A stretch of DNA of 64,000 bases from Clostridia bacterium (GTDB taxonomy: Bacteria; Bacillota; Clostridia; Oscillospirales; Acutalibacteraceae). A program made the translations under genes and the position numbers. The notes beneath the pieces are model-generated. The model saw nothing but the letters and a program-made list of their open reading frames with translations, was not told the DNA's origin and did no database searches. Below are positions 3,236 to 62,353 of this stretch, piece by piece. Within the stretch, counting starts at the first letter, position 1; every line of letters starts with the position of its first letter. Where the stretch lies: NCBI GenBank assembly GCA_030526115.1, contig JAUNDK010000002.1, positions 29,236 through 93,235 of the forward strand. The letters run 5' to 3'.

Positions 3236-4252
3236 TCAAGACTCCATCTGGTTTGCCTTAACTCGAGGATCAATGAAGCCATAGAGAATCTCGATAACGA
3301 GGTTAGCGATAAGAACCATGACTGTGATGATGAGTGTGCAACCAGAGAGAAGTGGATAGTCACGTCCTGTTACGGAGCTGAGAAGTGCAGAACCGACGCC
3401 AGGATATGAGAATACCTGCTCAGCAATGATGTTACCGGAAAGCATAGTACCGAAGCTCATTGCAAGACCTGTAACCTGTGGGAGCATAGCGTTTCTGAAA
3501 ACGTAAGTGATGATCTTGCTGTCCTTGATTCCGAGGAAGCGGCTGTACTTTACATAGTCAGCGTTAAGCTCGTAAATGGACATAGATCTCATACCGATTG
3601 CCTGACCACCGATTGTGATGAGAACAACGGAGCAGAATGGAAGGATCCAGTGGCTGAGAACGGACTGAATGAAAGCCCAGCTCATGTTTGGAACCATATC
3701 GAAGCCGTAACCGCCTCCGGAAGGAGCTATCTTAAGCTGAATAGCGAAGAGCCAGAGGAGGATTGTTGCCATACCGAAAGCAGGCATGTTGGAAATGAAC
3801 ATGAAGACCGGCATAACAACCTTATCGAAGCCCTTACGAATGTATGCTGCGATACATCCGAGGAAGTTACCGAGGCACCAACCTACGATGATAGCCGGTA
3901 ACTGAAGTCCAAGTGTCCAAAGAACAGAAGAACCGATAATATTAGAAACTGTACGAGGATACTGGGAGAAAGATGTTCCCATATCACCCTTAAGTAAATT
4001 TCCTACATAAAGCCAGAACTGCTGGAAATAGGACTTATCAAGTCCGAATCTCTGAATGTACTGCTCCTGAATCTGCTTGATAGCTGAAGCATCTGTCATA
4101 CCTGCGGTAGCGTTGCTGACGATTGTAGCAATCGGGTTACCCGGCATAAGACGAGGCAGTATAAAGTTAAGAATCAGTGCACAGAAGAATGTAACGACGT
4201 ACCAAGCGATTCTGCCGCCGTAGTACTTAATATATCCTTTCAATACCATCAC
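3236..4252 (-). CDS. ABC transporter permease (OppB/DppB-like)
   Basis: 338-aa multi-TM ORF with a binding-protein-dependent permease core. The start is uncertain: GTG 4252, ATG 4249, or TTG 4243 (the TTG is best spaced from GAGGTG). Confidence 0.85.
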   Translation of the reverse strand: MMVLKGYIKYYGGRIAWYVVTFFCALILNFILPRLMPGNPIATIVSNATAGMTDASAIKQIQEQYIQRFGLDKSYFQQFWLYVGNLLKGDMGTSFSQYPRTVSNIIGSSVLWTLGLQLPAIIVGWCLGNFLGCIAAYIRKGFDKVVMPVFMFISNMPAFGMATILLWLFAIQLKIAPSGGGYGFDMVPNMSWAFIQSVLSHWILPFCSVVLITIGGQAIGMRSMSIYELNADYVKYSRFLGIKDSKIITYVFRNAMLPQVTGLAMSFGTMLSGNIIAEQVFSYPGVGSALLSSVTGRDYPLLSGCTLIITVMVLIANLVIEILYGFIDPRVKANQMES

Positions 4253-56554: not shown

Positions 56555-57508
56555 TCAATAATCTCCTTTCCTGAACATTACATAGAAGGTATACATTGTT
56601 CCCGCAACAACAATACCTACGCAGATATTGAGTATGAGTATGAGACCGGAGGAAATGATGTTTCCAGGTGTTCCCTTTGGAATAATGCTCTCTATGTGGT
56701 TTGCGCCTGTGTAGAAGGAATAGCTCTTGCAGAGGGCATAGGTTCCGAGAGCGGCAATGCTCATAATCTTGTAGGTTTTTGAAGTGAAGAAACGCTCTGT
56801 CTTGGCAAAGCCGAAGGCATTGATATAAAGGATAAGTCCCGCACCGATGATGGCACCGCCGGAGAATCCGCCGCCCGGTCCCAAATGACCACAGAGAATT
56901 ACATAAATACCGAAGATGAAAATCGGAGGAACAAGAACCTTTGCCACAACCTGAAGAATAGCGTCATTCTTAGGCTCGTAAATACGGTCGGAAATATTCG
57001 CCTTCTTCTTGTTGTCTTTTCTTAAAAGAATGAGAACCGCACATGTTGCAATAAAGAGAACATGGCTTTCACCCAGAGTATCGAAGGCTCTGTAATCGAG
57101 TATCATGCCTGTAACAATGTTTACGGCGCCTGTCTCCTGAAGGCCCTGCTCAATATAACGCTGAGCGACCTCATTATTAACAGGATTATCCGCATTACCG
57201 AAAGGTGGAAGCGCCGCTACACCGTAAAGCAGCATACCCACAAGGAACACACAGAAAACTATGCTGAAAACCTTGTATGTTCTTGAGAACCTTGCAACAC
57301 CCTTGTTATGGGTGACATCAAGAGCTCTTACCCTGATTTCGTGGGCATCTTTCTCGCTCTTTTTAAAGGCTTCGTCACTTATTGTCTTTTCTTTCTGAGG
57401 CTTCATCTCAAGCTCGCCGACAAAGTAGTCCTTTGTTCCGTCATACCATGACTTAAGCTTGTATGAAACGGTCTTTTTATATTCGCTCTCAGGAATTCTC
57501 CTCGACAT
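56555..57508 (-). CDS. Mrp subunit B-like (MnhB domain) with an N-terminal hydrophilic extension
   Basis: 317 aa. NIVTGMILDYRAFDTLGE and GHLGPGGGFSGGAI motifs, preceded by a charged region of about 70 aa. Confidence 0.8.
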   Translation of the reverse strand: MSRRIPESEYKKTVSYKLKSWYDGTKDYFVGELEMKPQKEKTISDEAFKKSEKDAHEIRVRALDVTHNKGVARFSRTYKVFSIVFCVFLVGMLLYGVAALPPFGNADNPVNNEVAQRYIEQGLQETGAVNIVTGMILDYRAFDTLGESHVLFIATCAVLILLRKDNKKKANISDRIYEPKNDAILQVVAKVLVPPIFIFGIYVILCGHLGPGGGFSGGAIIGAGLILYINAFGFAKTERFFTSKTYKIMSIAALGTYALCKSYSFYTGANHIESIIPKGTPGNIISSGLILILNICVGIVVAGTMYTFYVMFRKGDY

Positions 57509-57794
57509 CGTTTTCTTCCTCCTTTCCTTCGTCGTTCATATACTCATCGTCGTTGTTTTTCTCGATGGAGTTAATCTTCTTGAGTGTTACGAAGAAGAGA
57601 ACCGTTGTAACACCGGCACCAACCGCCGCCTCGGTTATGGCGAGGTCGGGGGATTCAAGAAGCACCCATACTATGGACATGACAAGGCTGTATGTCATGA
57701 ATATGAGAATTGAGTTAAGCAGACTTTTTGTGAAACTGGCGGCAATCGCACACACCACCAGGAATATGAGGAGAGATGCAAAAAAGATATTCAT
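57489..57794 (-). CDS. MbhD/DUF4040-like small membrane subunit (MrpA C-terminal-region homolog)
   Basis: 101 aa. SPDLAITEAAVGAGVTT motif and an acidic C-terminal tail. Confidence 0.75.
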   Translation of the reverse strand: MNIFFASLLIFLVVCAIAASFTKSLLNSILIFMTYSLVMSIVWVLLESPDLAITEAAVGAGVTTVLFFVTLKKINSIEKNNDDEYMNDEGKEEENDVEENS

Positions 57795-58174
57795 TATTTC
57801 TCCTCCTTTTCTTCGCTGTTTCTGTTCTCGAGCGCCTCAACCTCTTCGATTGAATAATGCTCATAGTGTCTGTCAGGTTCTTCATCGGTTGTAACCTCAA
57901 GTCTTGTGATAAGGTGAGATGAAACCGGAGAGGAGAACCAGAGGAAGATTATGACAACAAACAGCTTGAGACTTGTGAAGTTAAGTCCGCTCATTATGAT
58001 AAGACCCGCAAGAGCAAGACCTATGCCCAGAGTATCTCCCATGGCGGCGGCGTGCATACGGTTGAGAACATACCTGAATTTAAACACGCCTATCATCTCA
58101 ACGATGAAGATAAAAACACCGGCACATATGAACGCAGCGCCGATTACGAATCTAAGCCAGTCCAGAATGCTCAT
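57794..58174 (-). CDS. Mrp subunit G (MnhG)
   Basis: 126 aa with three TM helices. Start and stop overlap the neighbouring genes. Confidence 0.8.
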   Translation of the reverse strand: MSILDWLRFVIGAAFICAGVFIFIVEMIGVFKFRYVLNRMHAAAMGDTLGIGLALAGLIIMSGLNFTSLKLFVVIIFLWFSSPVSSHLITRLEVTTDEEPDRHYEHYSIEEVEALENRNSEEKEEK

Positions 58175-58473
58175 CTGTGATCCTCCTCATCTTTTCTCTG
58201 CAGATATACGCCCATATAAACCTTGCACAGTACAATAACGGCAAGGAAGCTGATGGCGGCATAAATTATGCAGATATCAGCAAGGTAACCTTCGTGCATC
58301 ATAACCGCAAGCAGAGCGATTATGGTGATAACCATGGTACCCATCATGTTTGTGGCAACAATTCTGTCAGCAACCCTCGGTCCGATAATAGCTCTTACAA
58401 GGCAGAGTATTACAAGAATTGAGAGTATGACAAGTATTACCACGAAAAATCCCATTACATTTGTAAGATCCAT
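58171..58473 (-). CDS. Mrp subunit F (MnhF)
   Basis: 100 aa. IGPRVADRIVA motif. Confidence 0.8.
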   Translation of the reverse strand: MDLTNVMGFFVVILVILSILVILCLVRAIIGPRVADRIVATNMMGTMVITIIALLAVMMHEGYLADICIIYAAISFLAVIVLCKVYMGVYLQRKDEEDHR

Positions 58474-58496
58474 TTTTCTACCCTTTCTTATAAAGC

Positions 58497-59009
58497 TTAC
58501 CAGTTACCGTTGGAGTTGCTTCTTCTTTCTCCCCTTAATGCCTGCTTTGCGACATTTTCCATCTCTCGGAGCATTTTCACGAAAACGCTCTCGCTCATGC
58601 CGACGGCAAGGGAGGTATCAAGGCAGTGGATGAGGTAATCATCCTCTTCAAGCATAACGGTGATTGTTCCGGGTGTTAATGTGATGGCATTGGCAAGCAG
58701 AGCCCTGCCTGTCTTTGTTTTGAGGTCTGACTTGAAATAGACAAGGGCCGGAACAGGCTCCTCACGCTCGGTGAGTATCATTTTCATGACATAGCCGTTT
58801 GCCTTGAAAATTTCAATGACCAGAACTATCACATACTTAACGCCCTTTGCGGCATTTCTGTAAAGAGCCACCTCTTTTTTGATGCTGTGATCCATAAATG
58901 CACACACAAAGGCAAACACAGCGGCGGCTACTATAAGACCGATGACCGCAATCTCGAGGGTAAGATTACCGTTGAATATTACCCATACAAGAAAAAACAG
59001 CAGATACAT
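58497..59009 (-). CDS. Mrp subunit E (MnhE)
   Basis: About 170 aa. ITLTPGT motif. ATG 59009 is best spaced from GGAGGA (the ORF track starts at 59015). Confidence 0.8.
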   Translation of the reverse strand: MYLLFFLVWVIFNGNLTLEIAVIGLIVAAAVFAFVCAFMDHSIKKEVALYRNAAKGVKYVIVLVIEIFKANGYVMKMILTEREEPVPALVYFKSDLKTKTGRALLANAITLTPGTITVMLEEDDYLIHCLDTSLAVGMSESVFVKMLREMENVAKQALRGERRSNSNGNW

Positions 59010-59160
59010 ACACATATCCTCCTGATATATATAGTAATGTGATACAGTAAAAATAACTCTTGCACATAGTTTTATATTATACCACTTTTGCCCCTGCTTA
59101 GCGGTGTTATTATGTACAAATCAATGCCGAAATTTTGTCCTGTTTATGAACTATTTTTGT

Positions 59161-59203
59161 AAAAAAAAGCGACGGTATAAGGATTATCTCCGAATACCGC
59201 CGC
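59161..59203 (-). terminator. Rho-independent terminator ending the peptide/radical SAM operon
   Basis: 10-bp stem GCGGCGGTAT/ATACCGTCGC followed by TTTTTTTT on the minus strand. Confidence 0.9.
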
Positions 59204-59209
59204 AGAAGC

Positions 59210-60766
59210 CTATTCAATTATTCTGAGGCCCGCCTGTTTTATTTCTTTTCCGCTGTATGCACCTATTAAATCCTCCTCGGGATTAATAAGTATGCCCATG
59301 TAATGCCCCAGCTTTTTCATCAGGTAATTATGAATATTCTCGTCCCCTGTGCTGTACTGCAGTTCCCTCTGTAAAGGGTGACTGTGGGCAAAACCGAGGA
59401 ACACAAGACCGTCTCCGATGAAATCATCACGGTCATCGGAATACGGAAAATTCTTCCTGATAATTTCTGTCTCTCTTACAGCGTGCTTTAATGTATCGGA
59501 GGCAAATTTTGCCGTATCCTCGTTTATTCTTACAGTAAGGGATGGAAATACATATTTCACAACCCATGAATCACCTGTTCTGAAGCCGACAAGTCCCGCC
59601 TGCTGTTCATACATGGAATAAGGATTTCTTCTGCCCATGTGGAAAAGACTGCGAAGTTCTTTATAAGCATCGGGCTCTATGTAAATTACCTCGCCCACAT
59701 CTTCACCGCTTATCTCCGTTATACCGAGTTCGGGATATTTAATCCTGATATAATCCTTATAATCAGCTGTTTTTGAAAAAGTATCTCTGTAACAGAAGCG
59801 TGGTTCGTTCTTCTCGAAGTCCCATGTGTGCAGACTGTCTCCCACGCATTTATCGAAGTATTCACAGCCTTTGCATTTTTCGGAAACCGGGCGGTTTCTG
59901 AAGTACTCAAAACCGTTTTTCCATTTTTCCGAGAATGAATCTGTTTTAATATTACCCTGAATGAGAAAATCTTTTCTCGGCACATTCGGGCACACGAAGA
60001 TATCTCCGTTATACAGCACACTCGCCGCATGAATACCTGCAAAGCAGTCGAAATCTCTGCCCGGAAGCAGATTGCCGAGAAAATGCGGACAGCCCCACAC
60101 AACGGGGGTTCTGTGCTGTGCATTCACTTTTACAATGAAATCCGTAATGAACTTTATATCCTCCGCACTCACGGCAAGATCAAGGTTATCCTCAGCTCTG
60201 CCTATTGGGTCCACTATGCTGGTGCGAATGGAATCAAGCCCTATTTTATCAAGTTCCTCATAAAGTGCCGGGAATTCCCTGACATTCCTGCTGTTTGATG
60301 TGAAAGTTACCTGAATATGGTCGAGAAAATCCGCATCTTTCAGCTTTCTTAAATTGCGCAGTATCACATCATAGGAACCGGGCAGATGGCGCAGACTTTC
60401 ATGGGTTTCTCTAAGTCCGTCAAGGCTTATCGTAATGGTTTTCATACCGCTTGTTTTCATCTTTTCGATGACTGCATCGCTTATAAGAACACCGTTTGTC
60501 ACCATGCCCCAGTCAAAACCCATCCCGGAACCTTCAGTCATAATCTCGAACAGATCTTTGCGCATAAGTGGTTCCCCGCCGCTTATGTTAATCATGACAT
60601 CGGTTCCGATGTTTTCTTTCACATCCCTGAGACACGCAAGAATTTCCTCTGCGGTGAGAAGCTCTTCGCTGTCGATATCACAGCGGCTTCCGCAGTGGTC
60701 ACATTTTGCGTTACATTTCTGTGTTACCTCGAAAAGCAGTACTCTGAGGCTGTAATCTTTAATCAT
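59210..60766 (-). CDS. Radical SAM / SPASM-like enzyme fused to a C-terminal JAB/MPN (JAMM) metalloprotease-like domain
   Basis: 518 aa. CNAKCDHC (CX3CX2C), GGEPL, and the SPASM-like pattern C-x12-G-x4-C ... CKGCEYFDKCVGDS ... C. The C-terminal 160 aa or so carry YEQQAGLVG ... HSHP-x8-STGD. Confidence 0.8.
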   Translation of the reverse strand: MIKDYSLRVLLFEVTQKCNAKCDHCGSRCDIDSEELLTAEEILACLRDVKENIGTDVMINISGGEPLMRKDLFEIMTEGSGMGFDWGMVTNGVLISDAVIEKMKTSGMKTITISLDGLRETHESLRHLPGSYDVILRNLRKLKDADFLDHIQVTFTSNSRNVREFPALYEELDKIGLDSIRTSIVDPIGRAEDNLDLAVSAEDIKFITDFIVKVNAQHRTPVVWGCPHFLGNLLPGRDFDCFAGIHAASVLYNGDIFVCPNVPRKDFLIQGNIKTDSFSEKWKNGFEYFRNRPVSEKCKGCEYFDKCVGDSLHTWDFEKNEPRFCYRDTFSKTADYKDYIRIKYPELGITEISGEDVGEVIYIEPDAYKELRSLFHMGRRNPYSMYEQQAGLVGFRTGDSWVVKYVFPSLTVRINEDTAKFASDTLKHAVRETEIIRKNFPYSDDRDDFIGDGLVFLGFAHSHPLQRELQYSTGDENIHNYLMKKLGHYMGILINPEEDLIGAYSGKEIKQAGLRIIE

Positions 60767-60945
60767 CTTCTCTTCTTACCGAGCAGAAGCTTTTTGATTC
60801 TGTTTGAGGCCGGAGCACCGTAATAAACCTGAGCCTGAGCCTGGGATTCTCCGTTTTTGTCAACTGAGGTCTTTCCGCTGTTGCATCCTGCCAATGCGCC
60901 GAGCATTAATGCAAGTGCCATGATTATTGCTATGATTTTTTTCAT
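60763..60945 (-). CDS. Small lipobox peptide 1 (60 aa), candidate radical SAM substrate
   Basis: MKKIIAIIMALALMLGALAG/C lipoprotein signal. C-terminal VYYGAPASNRIKKLLLGKKRR. ATGA overlaps at both ends. Confidence 0.7.
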   Translation of the reverse strand: MKKIIAIIMALALMLGALAGCNSGKTSVDKNGESQAQAQVYYGAPASNRIKKLLLGKKRR

Positions 60946-61154
60946 GATTCTGTTCTCCTTCTTTTTAACAGATTTAGTTTTGAAATACGCTTTGAATTCG
61001 GACAGCCGTAATATTCCACAAATTCGGATACGGTCTGTTCCTCTGCTTCCAATGGAATTTCGGCAGAGGAGTCATCTGATTTTCTCTCGGCATTACATCC
61101 GGCAAGCAGGGCAAGCGACAGCAATGCCAGTAACAGACTCAGAATTTTCTTCAT
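60942..61154 (-). CDS. Small lipobox peptide 2 (70 aa), candidate radical SAM substrate
   Basis: MKKILSLLLALLSLALLAG/C lipoprotein signal. C-terminal EYYGCPNSKRISKLNLLKRRRTES. RBS AAGGTG lies 8 nt upstream. Confidence 0.7.
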   Translation of the reverse strand: MKKILSLLLALLSLALLAGCNAERKSDDSSAEIPLEAEEQTVSEFVEYYGCPNSKRISKLNLLKRRRTES

Positions 61155-61184
61155 ATTATCAACACCTTTATAAAATGTAAGTTT

Positions 61185-61213
61185 ATTATATTCCTATTTT
61201 ATATCTCTTTCAA
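61185..61213 (-). promoter_or_regulatory. Sigma-70-type promoter of the peptide/radical SAM operon
   Basis: TTGAAA (61213-61208), 17-nt spacer, TATAAT (61190-61185). Confidence 0.65.
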
Positions 61214-61244: not shown

Positions 61245-61267
61245 CTTTATTGAAAGAGAGGGATTTT

Positions 61268-61879
61268 ATGCACATACCAAAAGGAAAATCTCAGGACGAG
61301 AATATTCTGAGTTTTGAAGAAGCGCTTACTCATCGGGAGGACAGCAGTATTTATGACAGAGACAGATGGCTTTATATTCCGGATTTTTACTCCGAGTATC
61401 GTTACATACTGGGCACAAAGGGCAAAAAGCCGCTTATCTGCATAGGAATAAACCCGTCAACAGCGGAACCGGATAACCTTGACAATACTCTTAAATCCGT
61501 GCAGAGAATAGCAGACGGCAACGGCTTCGATTCCTTTATCATGTTCAATGTTTACGCCCAGAGGGCGACAAACCCCGATGACATGGACAAAGAACTTAAC
61601 CTCGAGATGCACGAAGAAAACATGAAGGCTTTTCGCTATATCATGAAGTTCAGCTGTGAAAGCCCTGCCGTATGGGCGGCATGGGGAACCATAATCGAGA
61701 AAAGAAAGTACCTGATAGACTGTGTTGCCGACATGATTAAAATCGGCGAGGAATTCGGCGCAAAGTGGTACAGGGCAGGAAAAGTCAGTGCAAAGGGTCA
61801 CCCTCACCACCCGCTGTATTTGAGAAAAGATTCCGTTCTTGAGCCTTTCGATGTGGTTGGAACTTACAACATAAAGTAA
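61268..61879 (+). CDS. DUF1643 domain protein
   Basis: ATG 61268 behind GAGAGGGA (the track's TTG 61250 would lie at the predicted transcription start). ICIGINPSTA and FIMFNVYAQRAT blocks, recalled as typical of DUF1643. Confidence 0.7.
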   Translation: MHIPKGKSQDENILSFEEALTHREDSSIYDRDRWLYIPDFYSEYRYILGTKGKKPLICIGINPSTAEPDNLDNTLKSVQRIADGNGFDSFIMFNVYAQRATNPDDMDKELNLEMHEENMKAFRYIMKFSCESPAVWAAWGTIIEKRKYLIDCVADMIKIGEEFGAKWYRAGKVSAKGHPHHPLYLRKDSVLEPFDVVGTYNIK

Positions 61880-61885
61880 AACAAA

Positions 61886-62353
61886 ATGAAAAGAGTACTT
61901 GTTAAATCGGTTTTCGATGCTTTCGATTATGTAATGCAGCACTATTACCCCGCAGGGCTTGAGGATCTTGCGGAAAAAACTGACAGCTATGCGGTAATAT
62001 CCATTCAGGATACCCACACCGACGGTTTTGGTCTTACTTTTTCAAAGAGCAGATGCTGCAGAGATGTTCTCACCCTGAAATTTGATGATATTATCCGTCC
62101 TGTTGAGTTTGCGGTACTGTTCTCGGAAGATATGGCAGAAAGCATTATCCGTTTCATAGAGGATAATAAATCCGTCGATACTCTGCTTGTTCATTGCTAT
62201 GCAGGGCAGTCACGATCCATGGCTGTGGGTGCCTTTGCCGTGTGGATGCTCGGCGGTGACAATTCAAAATACTTTGAAGGACACTGCCCCAACGAATATG
62301 TATATGACATGCTGACAACAACATATTTAAGAAAACAGATTTTATCCGAATAA
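61886..62353 (+). CDS. Cys-based phosphatase-like protein (HCX5R(S/T) motif)
   Basis: 155 aa. VHCYAGQSRS active-site-like loop. Starts 6 nt after the DUF1643 stop. Confidence 0.65.
   Translation: MKRVLVKSVFDAFDYVMQHYYPAGLEDLAEKTDSYAVISIQDTHTDGFGLTFSKSRCCRDVLTLKFDDIIRPVEFAVLFSEDMAESIIRFIEDNKSVDTLLVHCYAGQSRSMAVGAFAVWMLGGDNSKYFEGHCPNEYVYDMLTTTYLRKQILSE

Follow-up and report, generated by a model that had tools for sequence, protein, structure and literature searches.

What is the function of a radical S-adenosylmethionine (SAM) enzyme that is encoded in one operon with two short predicted lipoproteins and that carries, at its C-terminus, a domain resembling a metalloprotease? This question is raised by a three-gene operon on the minus strand, from 61213 to 59161, of a 64,000-nucleotide stretch of DNA (hereinafter, the window) from a Clostridia bacterium of the Acutalibacteraceae (assembly GCA_030526115.1, contig JAUNDK010000002.1, positions 29,236 to 93,235). 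The operon consists of the genes for peptide 1 (P0228, 70 amino acids (aa), 60942-61154), peptide 2 (P0289, 60 aa, 60763-60945) and a 518-aa enzyme (59210-60766). Every element of a preliminary description, made from the sequence without database searches, is present. We consider it probable that the operon is a peptide-maturation module in which both domains of the enzyme act on a YG(C)P block of the peptides. A more specific proposal is advanced tentatively, with confidence somewhat short of an even chance: membrane-tethered peptides would be modified by the radical SAM domain within Tyr-Gly-Cys-Pro and then cut, probably at Gly-Cys, by the fused JAMM domain, which would constitute a new maturation class.

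Domain architecture of the enzyme

The N-terminal part of the enzyme (residues 1-330; 59777..60766, minus strand) consists of a radical SAM core and a SPASM domain, as identified by Pfam and NCBIfam profiles, invariant cysteines and Foldseek comparison. Both domains had been proposed in the preliminary description, and in a check with hidden Markov models both score above their Pfam cutoffs: Radical_SAM (PF04055) spans residues 13-155 with 78.4 bits against a cutoff of 29.5, and SPASM spans residues 241-302 with 30.1 bits against 21.5. The CX3CX2C cluster motif corresponds to C18-x3-C22-x2-C25, which is invariant among 32 homologs, and the conserved ligands of the SPASM region are C226, C241-x12-G254-x4-C259, C298-x2-C301-x5-C307 and C325. 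The fourth Cys of the SPASM block CX2CX5CX3C is replaced by Ser311, as in the TIGR04133 family. These Fe-S cluster ligands are assigned by motif only, with the alignments to Protein Data Bank (PDB) sequences stopping short of the SPASM region.

Neither Pfam nor NCBIfam detects in the enzyme a recognition element (RRE) of the kind that binds peptides made on ribosomes and modified after translation (RiPPs), or a PqqD-like domain. An N-terminal RRE is not possible because the radical SAM motif begins at residue 18, leaving no room for such a domain. In the AlphaFold model built from the alignment of the 32 homologs (pLDDT 86), the best three-dimensional matches of residues 1-330, found with Foldseek, are SuiB, SkfB, CteB, anSME and PqqE, all of which are peptide-modifying radical SAM/SPASM enzymes. 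By sequence, NCBIfam ranks TIGR04133 first (240 bits), followed by AhbD (137) and NirJ (119), with MftC (105.6) also among the matches.

The C-terminal part of the enzyme (residues 345-518; 59213..59734, minus strand) is predicted to be an MPN/JAB metalloprotease domain of the JAMM type, with the putative catalytic residues E387, H461-x-H463, S472 and D475. Direct sequence searches miss it: Pfam (PF01398/PF14464) finds no JAB domain in either the full enzyme or the isolated C-terminus, the sole match being a spurious one to Dyp_perox_C, and a phmmer search of PDB sequences with the enzyme yields no JAB match. A profile of the C-terminal 190 residues matches in the PDB solely the JAMM proteases AMSH/STAMBP, sst2 and BRCC36, with weak scores (E 0.12-1.4) yet with alignments that fall exactly over the zinc site. 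When a model of this domain alone (pLDDT 89.6, pTM 0.88) is compared to the PDB with Foldseek, all of the top 50 matches are MPN/JAMM proteins (probability 1.00, E down to 8.7e-8), including Rpn11, CSN5/6, BRCC36, AMSH, an archaeal Rpn11 homolog and a bacterial ubiquitin-like protein (Ubl) deubiquitinase. All 32 homologs, at 53-65% identity, retain E387, H461, H463, S472 and D475 without exception. Furthermore, two remote relatives within this domain family, P0146 and P0155, exceed the PF01398 cutoff, with about 23 bits against 22.5. We regard the JAB identity as settled because the profile, fold, invariant-motif and transitive-homology evidence agree where sequence detection failed; in the model, the C-terminal domain has the MPN/JAB fold with a complete predicted catalytic motif. 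The radical SAM/SPASM-JAB fusion anticipated in the preliminary description is thus borne out by the fold, the profile and the distant members that pass Pfam.

The family of this JAB domain is small, with 66 representatives among 1.84 billion proteins. Most of these have the fusion architecture, but the domain occasionally forms a separate protein of about 200 aa and is also found at the N-terminus of an unrelated architecture. The latter is represented by P0142, P0146, P0152 and P0155, in which the JAB domain of the same sub-family is followed by 200-250 residues of low-complexity or unknown sequence, with no radical SAM domain. One of the standalone JAB proteins, P0126, sits on a 1-kb contig. 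A phage origin of the domain was considered, given that one of the loci with a fusion gene (L083) looks prophage-like, and was rejected, the JAB family having no match in IMG/VR.

The motif-bearing peptides and their association with the enzyme

Both window peptides start with an MKK n-region, followed by a hydrophobic stretch of 14-16 residues and an AGC lipobox. The sequences LLAGC in peptide 1 and ALAGC in peptide 2 conform to the lipobox pattern [LVI][ASTVI][GAS]C, and, judged by sequence only, both peptides are predicted lipoproteins. The Pfam LPAM_1 profile remains below its threshold for these peptides (17.2 against 20 bits), and peptide 1 is named 'lipoprotein' by NCBI. The two peptides end in related C-terminal blocks, YYGCPNSKRISKLNLLKRRR and YYGAPASNRIKKLLLGKKRR, respectively. 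In peptide 1, the block with the motif and the cationic tail, YYGCPNSKRISKLNLLKRRRTES (60945..61013, minus strand), has a charge of +6 and is preceded by an acidic linker with a charge of -7. This peptide scores 58 bits against the profile of the peptide family described below, and its motif Tyr is located 22 residues from the C-terminus, against a family mode of 20. The block of peptide 2 (60766..60825, minus strand) is divergent, with the sequence YYGAPAS, and the linker is neutral rather than acidic. Peptide 2 is the sole member of the family (1 of 111) in which Ala replaces the motif Cys; possible explanations are that this paralog is decaying, that it cannot be cleaved or that it acts as a regulator. 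Across the 64 kb of the window, YGxP is found in just these two real open reading frames (ORFs), a confinement to the operon that far exceeds the chance expectation.

A profile search with 40-45-aa segments as queries identified 111 peptides of this family, 40-79 aa in length. None of these contains a Pfam domain, and their names are limited to "hypothetical protein" or "lipoprotein". The Y, G, P and S of the motif and two Leu residues (L..L) are invariant in all 111 peptides, the motif Cys is present in 110, and the family consensus is GEVVCYYGCPNSKKAQKLQLxKKxYR. In 96 of 110 peptides, the distance from the motif Tyr to the C-terminus is exactly 20 residues, whereas the part N-terminal of the block measures 29-59 residues among these peptides and exceeds 160 at some loci. 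The preliminary description had placed both the recognition signal and the modified part in the C-terminal block rather than the N-terminus, and this view is supported by the lack of an RRE and by the fixed distance to the C-terminus.

The lipobox leader, which had been taken as a defining feature of the system, does not hold up as such, being confined to about 10 of the 111 peptides, namely, those of the sub-clade nearest to the window. About 100 peptides start instead with an amphipathic, non-signal segment (MRSIFALIKSWFKKL), with a mean hydrophobic moment of 0.47 against 0.24 ± 0.13 for shuffled sequences. From their sequences, the property common to these heads appears to be membrane targeting. 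The peptides have a three-part layout that consists of the head, an acidic, Pro-rich linker (mean charge -4.1) and the cationic block (mean charge +5.8). Some of the motif-bearing partners of the enzyme are larger proteins of 130-195 aa.

More than 120 full-length homologs of the enzyme (516-548 aa, 53-65% identity) are encoded in metagenome-assembled genomes of Clostridia and Lachnospiraceae. Each of the 8 loci of such homologs that were fetched, from unrelated contexts, includes 1-7 adjacent motif genes, located either upstream or downstream of the enzyme gene, the products of which end in [YH]YGCP[NAS]S[KN][KR]xx[KR]LxL followed by a basic tail. The reverse look-up, starting from the peptide P0186, led to a gene that adjoins those for a 528-aa fusion and a second peptide. 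The distant fusion P0138 (548 aa) overlaps the gene of a 195-aa protein with an N-terminal zinc ribbon and the C-terminal sequence ..AFLYGCPNPK.., which implies that the substrate need not be a short peptide. The preliminary description had identified the short ORFs as cognate peptides, an identification to be abandoned if homologs of the enzyme generally lacked such neighbors; the converse was found, with motif genes at 8 of 8 loci as well as in the window, at the P0186 locus and beside the distant fusion. On this comparative sequence evidence, the short peptides are almost certainly the substrates of the enzyme. The components of this compact system are a single enzyme and a peptide, with no accessory genes seen nearby; in particular, no transporter or second protease was found near the module in 9 different genomic contexts. 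A profile search of contigs with the full-length alignment was dominated by generic radical SAM patterns and returned no close fusions; it supplied the TIGR04133 comparison set used below.

Several of these loci have peculiarities of their own. In L085 (4617-6090), the fusion gene is immediately followed downstream by a tandem array of seven peptide genes, after which comes a desulfoferrodoxin gene; the seven peptides have differing amphipathic heads and [HL]YGCP[NSA]S tails. In L083 (571-2989), five motif genes are located upstream of one enzyme gene, within a run of small ORFs without Pfam matches, and among their products are a lipoprotein of 187 aa, the linker of which is long, acidic and of low complexity, and a form of 131 aa with one transmembrane segment. 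The partner of P0138 (L090, 439-1026, and L091, 144-554) has the C-terminal sequence AFLYGCPNPKMINNCSV, in which the YGCPN core is kept and the tail is not basic. A class of short peptides of 50 aa is represented by P0248 (MASIFALLKSLFQKL..EEAVDYYGCPNSKKAQKLQLKKNILK; L092-L094, positions 3501-3653 or 1923-2075), the gene of which stands alone between the genes for a GH3 glycosidase and a CitMHS transporter, with no fusion enzyme within 3.5 kb. A divergent gene for a 66-aa zinc-ribbon protein is located upstream of the fusion gene in L084 (2544-2744) and in L095-L097 (1189-1389); it may be a conserved neighbor, or else these contigs may come from close relatives.

Relationship with the TIGR04133/TIGR04134 system

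The preliminary description knew of no described class of this kind and, in doing so, overlooked the closest relative of the window system, the pair TIGR04133/TIGR04134, which has the YGxP motif in common with it. This pair is computationally defined and is found mainly in Bacteroidota, Fibrobacter and spirochaetes. TIGR04133 (rSAM_w_lipo) is the best NCBIfam match of the window enzyme, with the score of 240 bits falling under the 425-bit cutoff. By comparison, 430-621 bits are reached by genuine members of TIGR04133 (from Bacteroidales, Fibrobacter and Treponema), which consist of about 355 aa and have no C-terminal extension, and the intermediates L001 and L002 score about 320 bits. The enzymes of the two groups share the radical SAM/SPASM architecture, the seven-Cys pattern, in which CX2CX5CX3C is without its fourth Cys, and an invariant His two positions further on, and both are encoded beside small membrane-anchored proteins, mostly lipoproteins, that contain Y-G-x-P. 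At no fewer than 22 of 35 loci, lipoproteins with YGxP are encoded just upstream of the TIGR04133 enzyme, whereas the background frequency of YGxP is 0.011 per 100 aa. In these partners, the motif often comes right after the lipobox Cys (QACYGTP) or has the form EYG[VMT]PxADY, and some of the lipoproteins weakly match TIGR04134, the "radical SAM-associated putative lipoprotein". The window peptides and other clostridial peptides have no match to TIGR04134 in NCBIfam and share with it only the YGxP core and, in a minority, the lipobox.

The differences between the two groups concern the same few features. The window enzyme has an extra JAB domain of 190 aa. The clostridial motif is C-terminal and is accompanied by a measured basic tail, whereas the TIGR04134-type motif is located just after the lipobox. 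The x of YGxP is Cys in 110 of the 111 peptides beside fusions but V, T, M or A beside the JAB-less enzymes (Cys in 1 of 38). The partners of the JAB-less enzymes have no basic KLxL tail; beside the JAB-less clostridial intermediate L001, for example, the motif AYGVPAQ is located near the N-terminus of a membrane protein with two helices and no tail. Judging from these sequence comparisons, the window system is best seen as a clostridial offshoot of an older YGxP-directed radical SAM system, in which the JAB fusion, the motif Cys and the measured basic tail would be clostridial additions that occur together. The link of the JAB domain to the basic tail that had been proposed in the preliminary description, and its link to the Cys (110 of 111 against 1 of 38), thus stand at the level of clades; this correlation offers the best indication so far of the task of the protease, and the position of the cleavage is something that we only infer.

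The partners of the TIGR04133 enzymes show regularities of their own. The upstream ORFs of L009, L010, L011, L018, L022, L031 and L034 represent one sub-type of the partner lipoproteins of Bacteroidota and spirochaetes, in which YG[TMP]P comes straight after the lipobox Cys (FQACYGTPQD), and these proteins continue with a domain of about 100 aa with the pattern G-x-V-x-D..G.PI.G(I/V). KYGxP repeats, two to three per protein, are present in other TIGR04133 partners. Where the target motif stands with respect to the lipidated Cys does not look random in the partners of these enzymes.

Proposed mechanism and alternative explanations

Under the mechanism that we propose, a cytoplasmic bifunctional enzyme would act on the C-terminal block of 20-22 residues in the membrane-targeted peptides encoded beside it. 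The radical SAM/SPASM module would bind this block directly, a mode of recognition that is suggested by the lack of an RRE, and would introduce a radical modification inside Tyr-Gly-x-Pro. An intramolecular cross-link of the invariant Tyr with the x residue, in a small ring of the cyclophane or thioether type, is the product that we favor, although with a confidence well below an even chance. With V, T, M or A at the x position in the sister clade without JAB, a thiol cannot be a requirement of the ancestral chemistry; the main alternative to the Tyr cross-link is a thioether that would be confined to the clade with the Cys. The fused JAMM domain would then hydrolyze one peptide bond in, or just after, the motif, an activity that is favored by the invariance of all the catalytic residues. 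The best guess for the cleaved bond, made by analogy, is Gly-Cys: the Gly-Cys pair of YGCP is invariant, and there are precedents among prokaryotic JAMM enzymes, with Mec+ (acting with CysO) and QbsD (with QbsE) hydrolyzing Gly-Cys bonds. Cleavage at this position would remove the cationic tail, which would be a C-terminal recognition sequence, or follower. The N-terminal product would stay tethered to the membrane, in the window sub-clade through Sec export and lipidation of the lipobox Cys and in the majority class through the amphipathic helix. For the lipobox peptides, the modification and the cut would take place in the cytoplasm, before Sec export and lipidation; such an order would fit the system because a peptide of 60-70 aa is exported post-translationally and the three genes are translationally coupled.

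Two other leads on the chemistry were rejected. A formylglycine modification of the anSME type does not fit, given that C-P-N-S-K-R departs from the C/S-x-P/A-x-R pattern, with Pro directly after the Cys. A covariation of the missing fourth SPASM Cys with the substrate Cys, which would have pointed to a thioether formed with the substrate as a ligand of the auxiliary cluster, does not discriminate, both clades being equally without this Cys.

Several observations weigh against the mechanism outlined above. The window protein falls under every Pfam threshold for JAB, the TM-scores to solved MPN domains are moderate (0.48-0.63), and the JAMM spacing in the enzyme is HxH-x8-S where x7 is canonical. 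The non-basic tail in the partner of P0138 (L090) means that a cationic tail is not universally required, and orphan precursor genes exist, as exemplified by P0248. If the Cys is essential, peptide 2 is not a normal substrate. Finally, the correlation of the JAB domain, the Cys and the tail is, essentially, a comparison of two clades and may reflect shared ancestry rather than function.

The same layout of the peptides allows a reading in which the released fragment, not the tethered one, is the product: JAB would cut after YYG, the amphipathic or lipobox head and the acidic linker would be a charge-neutralizing pro-piece, and the C-terminal cationic peptide of 18-20 residues, starting with the (modified) Cys-Pro, would be an antimicrobial or a signal. 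The three-part layout, in which the head and an anionic linker (-4.1) precede a cationic tail of about 18 aa (+5.8), is compatible with such a product, and so is the fact that the tail is the most conserved and most length-constrained part of the peptides. Tandem paralogs, up to seven in L085, are typical of bacteriocin-like loci, and JAMM enzymes classically cut after a C-terminal Gly. Nevertheless, we consider this reading improbable: there is no exporter or immunity gene in the 9 contexts, and with a cytoplasmic cut in the lipobox sub-clade, the tail would not leave the cell and the variable part alone would be exported, making the lipobox pointless. Moreover, the sister proteins of TIGR04134 are folded lipoproteins with YGxP near the N-terminus and no cationic tail, and the tail in the partner of the distant fusion is not cationic either. 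Hydrolysis itself could be questioned if the MPN domain were a non-cutting docking site for the peptide tail that replaces the missing RRE, with the radical SAM modification as the sole chemistry. MPN domains bind extended C-terminal tails, the enzyme is devoid of any RRE or PqqD-like domain, the fixed 20-residue distance suggests an anchored C-terminus, and a standalone homolog, P0128, has HSR in place of HSH. The invariance of all the JAMM residues across the 32 homologs would, however, be unexpected for a structural MPN- domain, such as those of Rpn8 and CSN6, and makes docking as the only role of the domain quite improbable. A radical SAM enzyme of the cofactor type, like AhbD and NirJ in tetrapyrrole metabolism, with the short ORFs being unrelated small lipoproteins, is suggested by the second and third NCBIfam matches, AhbD (137 bits) and NirJ (119 bits). 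These scores are far under the respective cutoffs, which are at least 500, the neighborhood contains no heme or siroheme genes, the motif peptides accompany the enzyme through unrelated genomic contexts, and the best fold matches are peptide maturases, so that such a function appears extremely improbable.

Comparison with other maturation systems and novelty

The solved radical SAM/SPASM maturases, namely, SuiB (streptide), SkfB, CteB (sactipeptide/ranthipeptide, SCIFF), PqqE and anSME, are enzymes with SPASM auxiliary clusters that act on short ribosomal peptides or on proteins in the cytoplasm. The window enzyme differs from these in lacking an RRE, with identity to them of 14-23%, and, unlike the window enzyme, none of these is known to be fused to a protease. 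SCIFF provides a further likeness, as a small, widespread clostridial module without an exporter. Mycofactocin is similar in that the radical SAM/SPASM enzyme MftC modifies the conserved C-terminal end of MftA, after which the metallopeptidase MftE cuts adjacent to the modified site. However, MftE is a separate enzyme and belongs to the creatininase family, in contrast to the fused JAMM domain, MftA has Gly-Val-Tyr at its end and depends on the RRE chaperone MftB, and the product is a soluble redox cofactor. On the protease side, Mec+ (with CysO), QbsD (with QbsE), archaeal JAMM1 (acting on small archaeal modifier proteins, SAMPs), Cap3 of the CBASS anti-phage systems and bacterial Ubl deubiquitinases have the same MPN fold and the same E..HxH..S..D site. 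The substrates of these prokaryotic JAMM peptidases are beta-grasp ubiquitin-like proteins that end in Gly-Gly, whereas the window substrate is an unstructured peptide with Tyr-Gly; none of these peptidases is known to be fused to a radical SAM enzyme.

Nothing was found in the searchable literature on TIGR04133, on fusions of radical SAM with JAB, JAMM or MPN domains, or on lipobox precursors of radical SAM enzymes, and two overview papers on radical SAM RiPPs contain nothing on a system of the window type. A compendium of 15,000 RiPP-associated radical SAM enzymes was built from RRE-fused enzymes, with lipoproteins, JAB and MPN unmentioned. The system appears to have escaped cataloguing because mining relies largely on fused RRE domains or on known precursor families, neither of which is available here; in public annotation, its components are named "radical SAM protein", "hypothetical protein" or "lipoprotein". 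What is already known is radical SAM/SPASM peptide maturation as a kind of system, together with the computational relative TIGR04133/TIGR04134. Judging from the sequences, the novelty is nevertheless substantial, and consists in the fused JAMM protease, the apparently RRE-independent recognition of a measured C-terminal block and the new peptide family.

Radical SAM/SPASM maturases are a main source of new peptide chemistry. If the proposed mechanism is correct, the fusion of a radical SAM enzyme with a protease would be the first of its kind, as would the use of a JAMM enzyme as a RiPP follower or leader peptidase, and the window system would thereby add to RiPP processing a new type of protease, a C-terminal, RRE-independent mode of recognition and, likely, a new cross-link within a four-residue motif. 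It would also provide a functional handle on TIGR04133/TIGR04134, which is common in Bacteroidota, and, together with that pair, would delineate a family of envelope peptides, modified at YGxP and widespread among gut anaerobes. Its repeated occurrence in Clostridia and Lachnospiraceae of the gut and rumen type suggests that the system serves envelope biology or cell interactions and not the making of a rare secondary metabolite.

Operon organization and genomic neighborhood

The organization of the operon agrees with the preliminary description, from the near-consensus promoter and the three ORFs to the strong terminator. The sigma-70-type promoter (61185..61213, minus strand), TTGAAA-17-TATAAT, matches the consensus in 11 of 12 positions and is located 31 nt 5' of the first start codon. 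The region contains no excess of promoter-like sites in general (4, with 5.5 expected), and the case for this promoter therefore rests on its position and quality rather than on the count. All three genes are coupled by ATGA stop/start overlaps (60945..60942 and 60766..60763), and each of the three ORFs is preceded by a purine-rich ribosome-binding site, AAAGGTG before the ATG of peptide gene 1 and, for peptide gene 2, GAAGGAG within the 3' end of peptide gene 1. The intrinsic terminator (59161..59203, minus strand) consists of a 10-bp G+C-rich stem (59203..59169), an inner 3-bp helix and a U8 tract. Its folding energy is -21.3 kcal/mol (z -4.27), with none of 200 shuffled sequences folding equally well; a simple terminator scanner missed this hairpin because its apical loop is long.

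The genes on both flanks are unrelated to the operon. Directly beyond the terminator lies an operon for a multi-subunit cation antiporter of the Mrp/Mnh/Mbh type (56555-59015, minus strand), with the subunits MnhE, MrpF, MnhG, MbhD and MbhE, the last one fused with MnhB. On the upstream side, there are a divergent DUF1643 gene (61250-61879) and, further on, an AEC-type transporter gene. The DUF1643 gene is directly followed by a gene (61886-62353, plus strand) for a 155-aa protein without a Pfam match, which contains the motif HCYAGQSRS, resembling the Cys-phosphatase signature HCxxGxxR(S/T).

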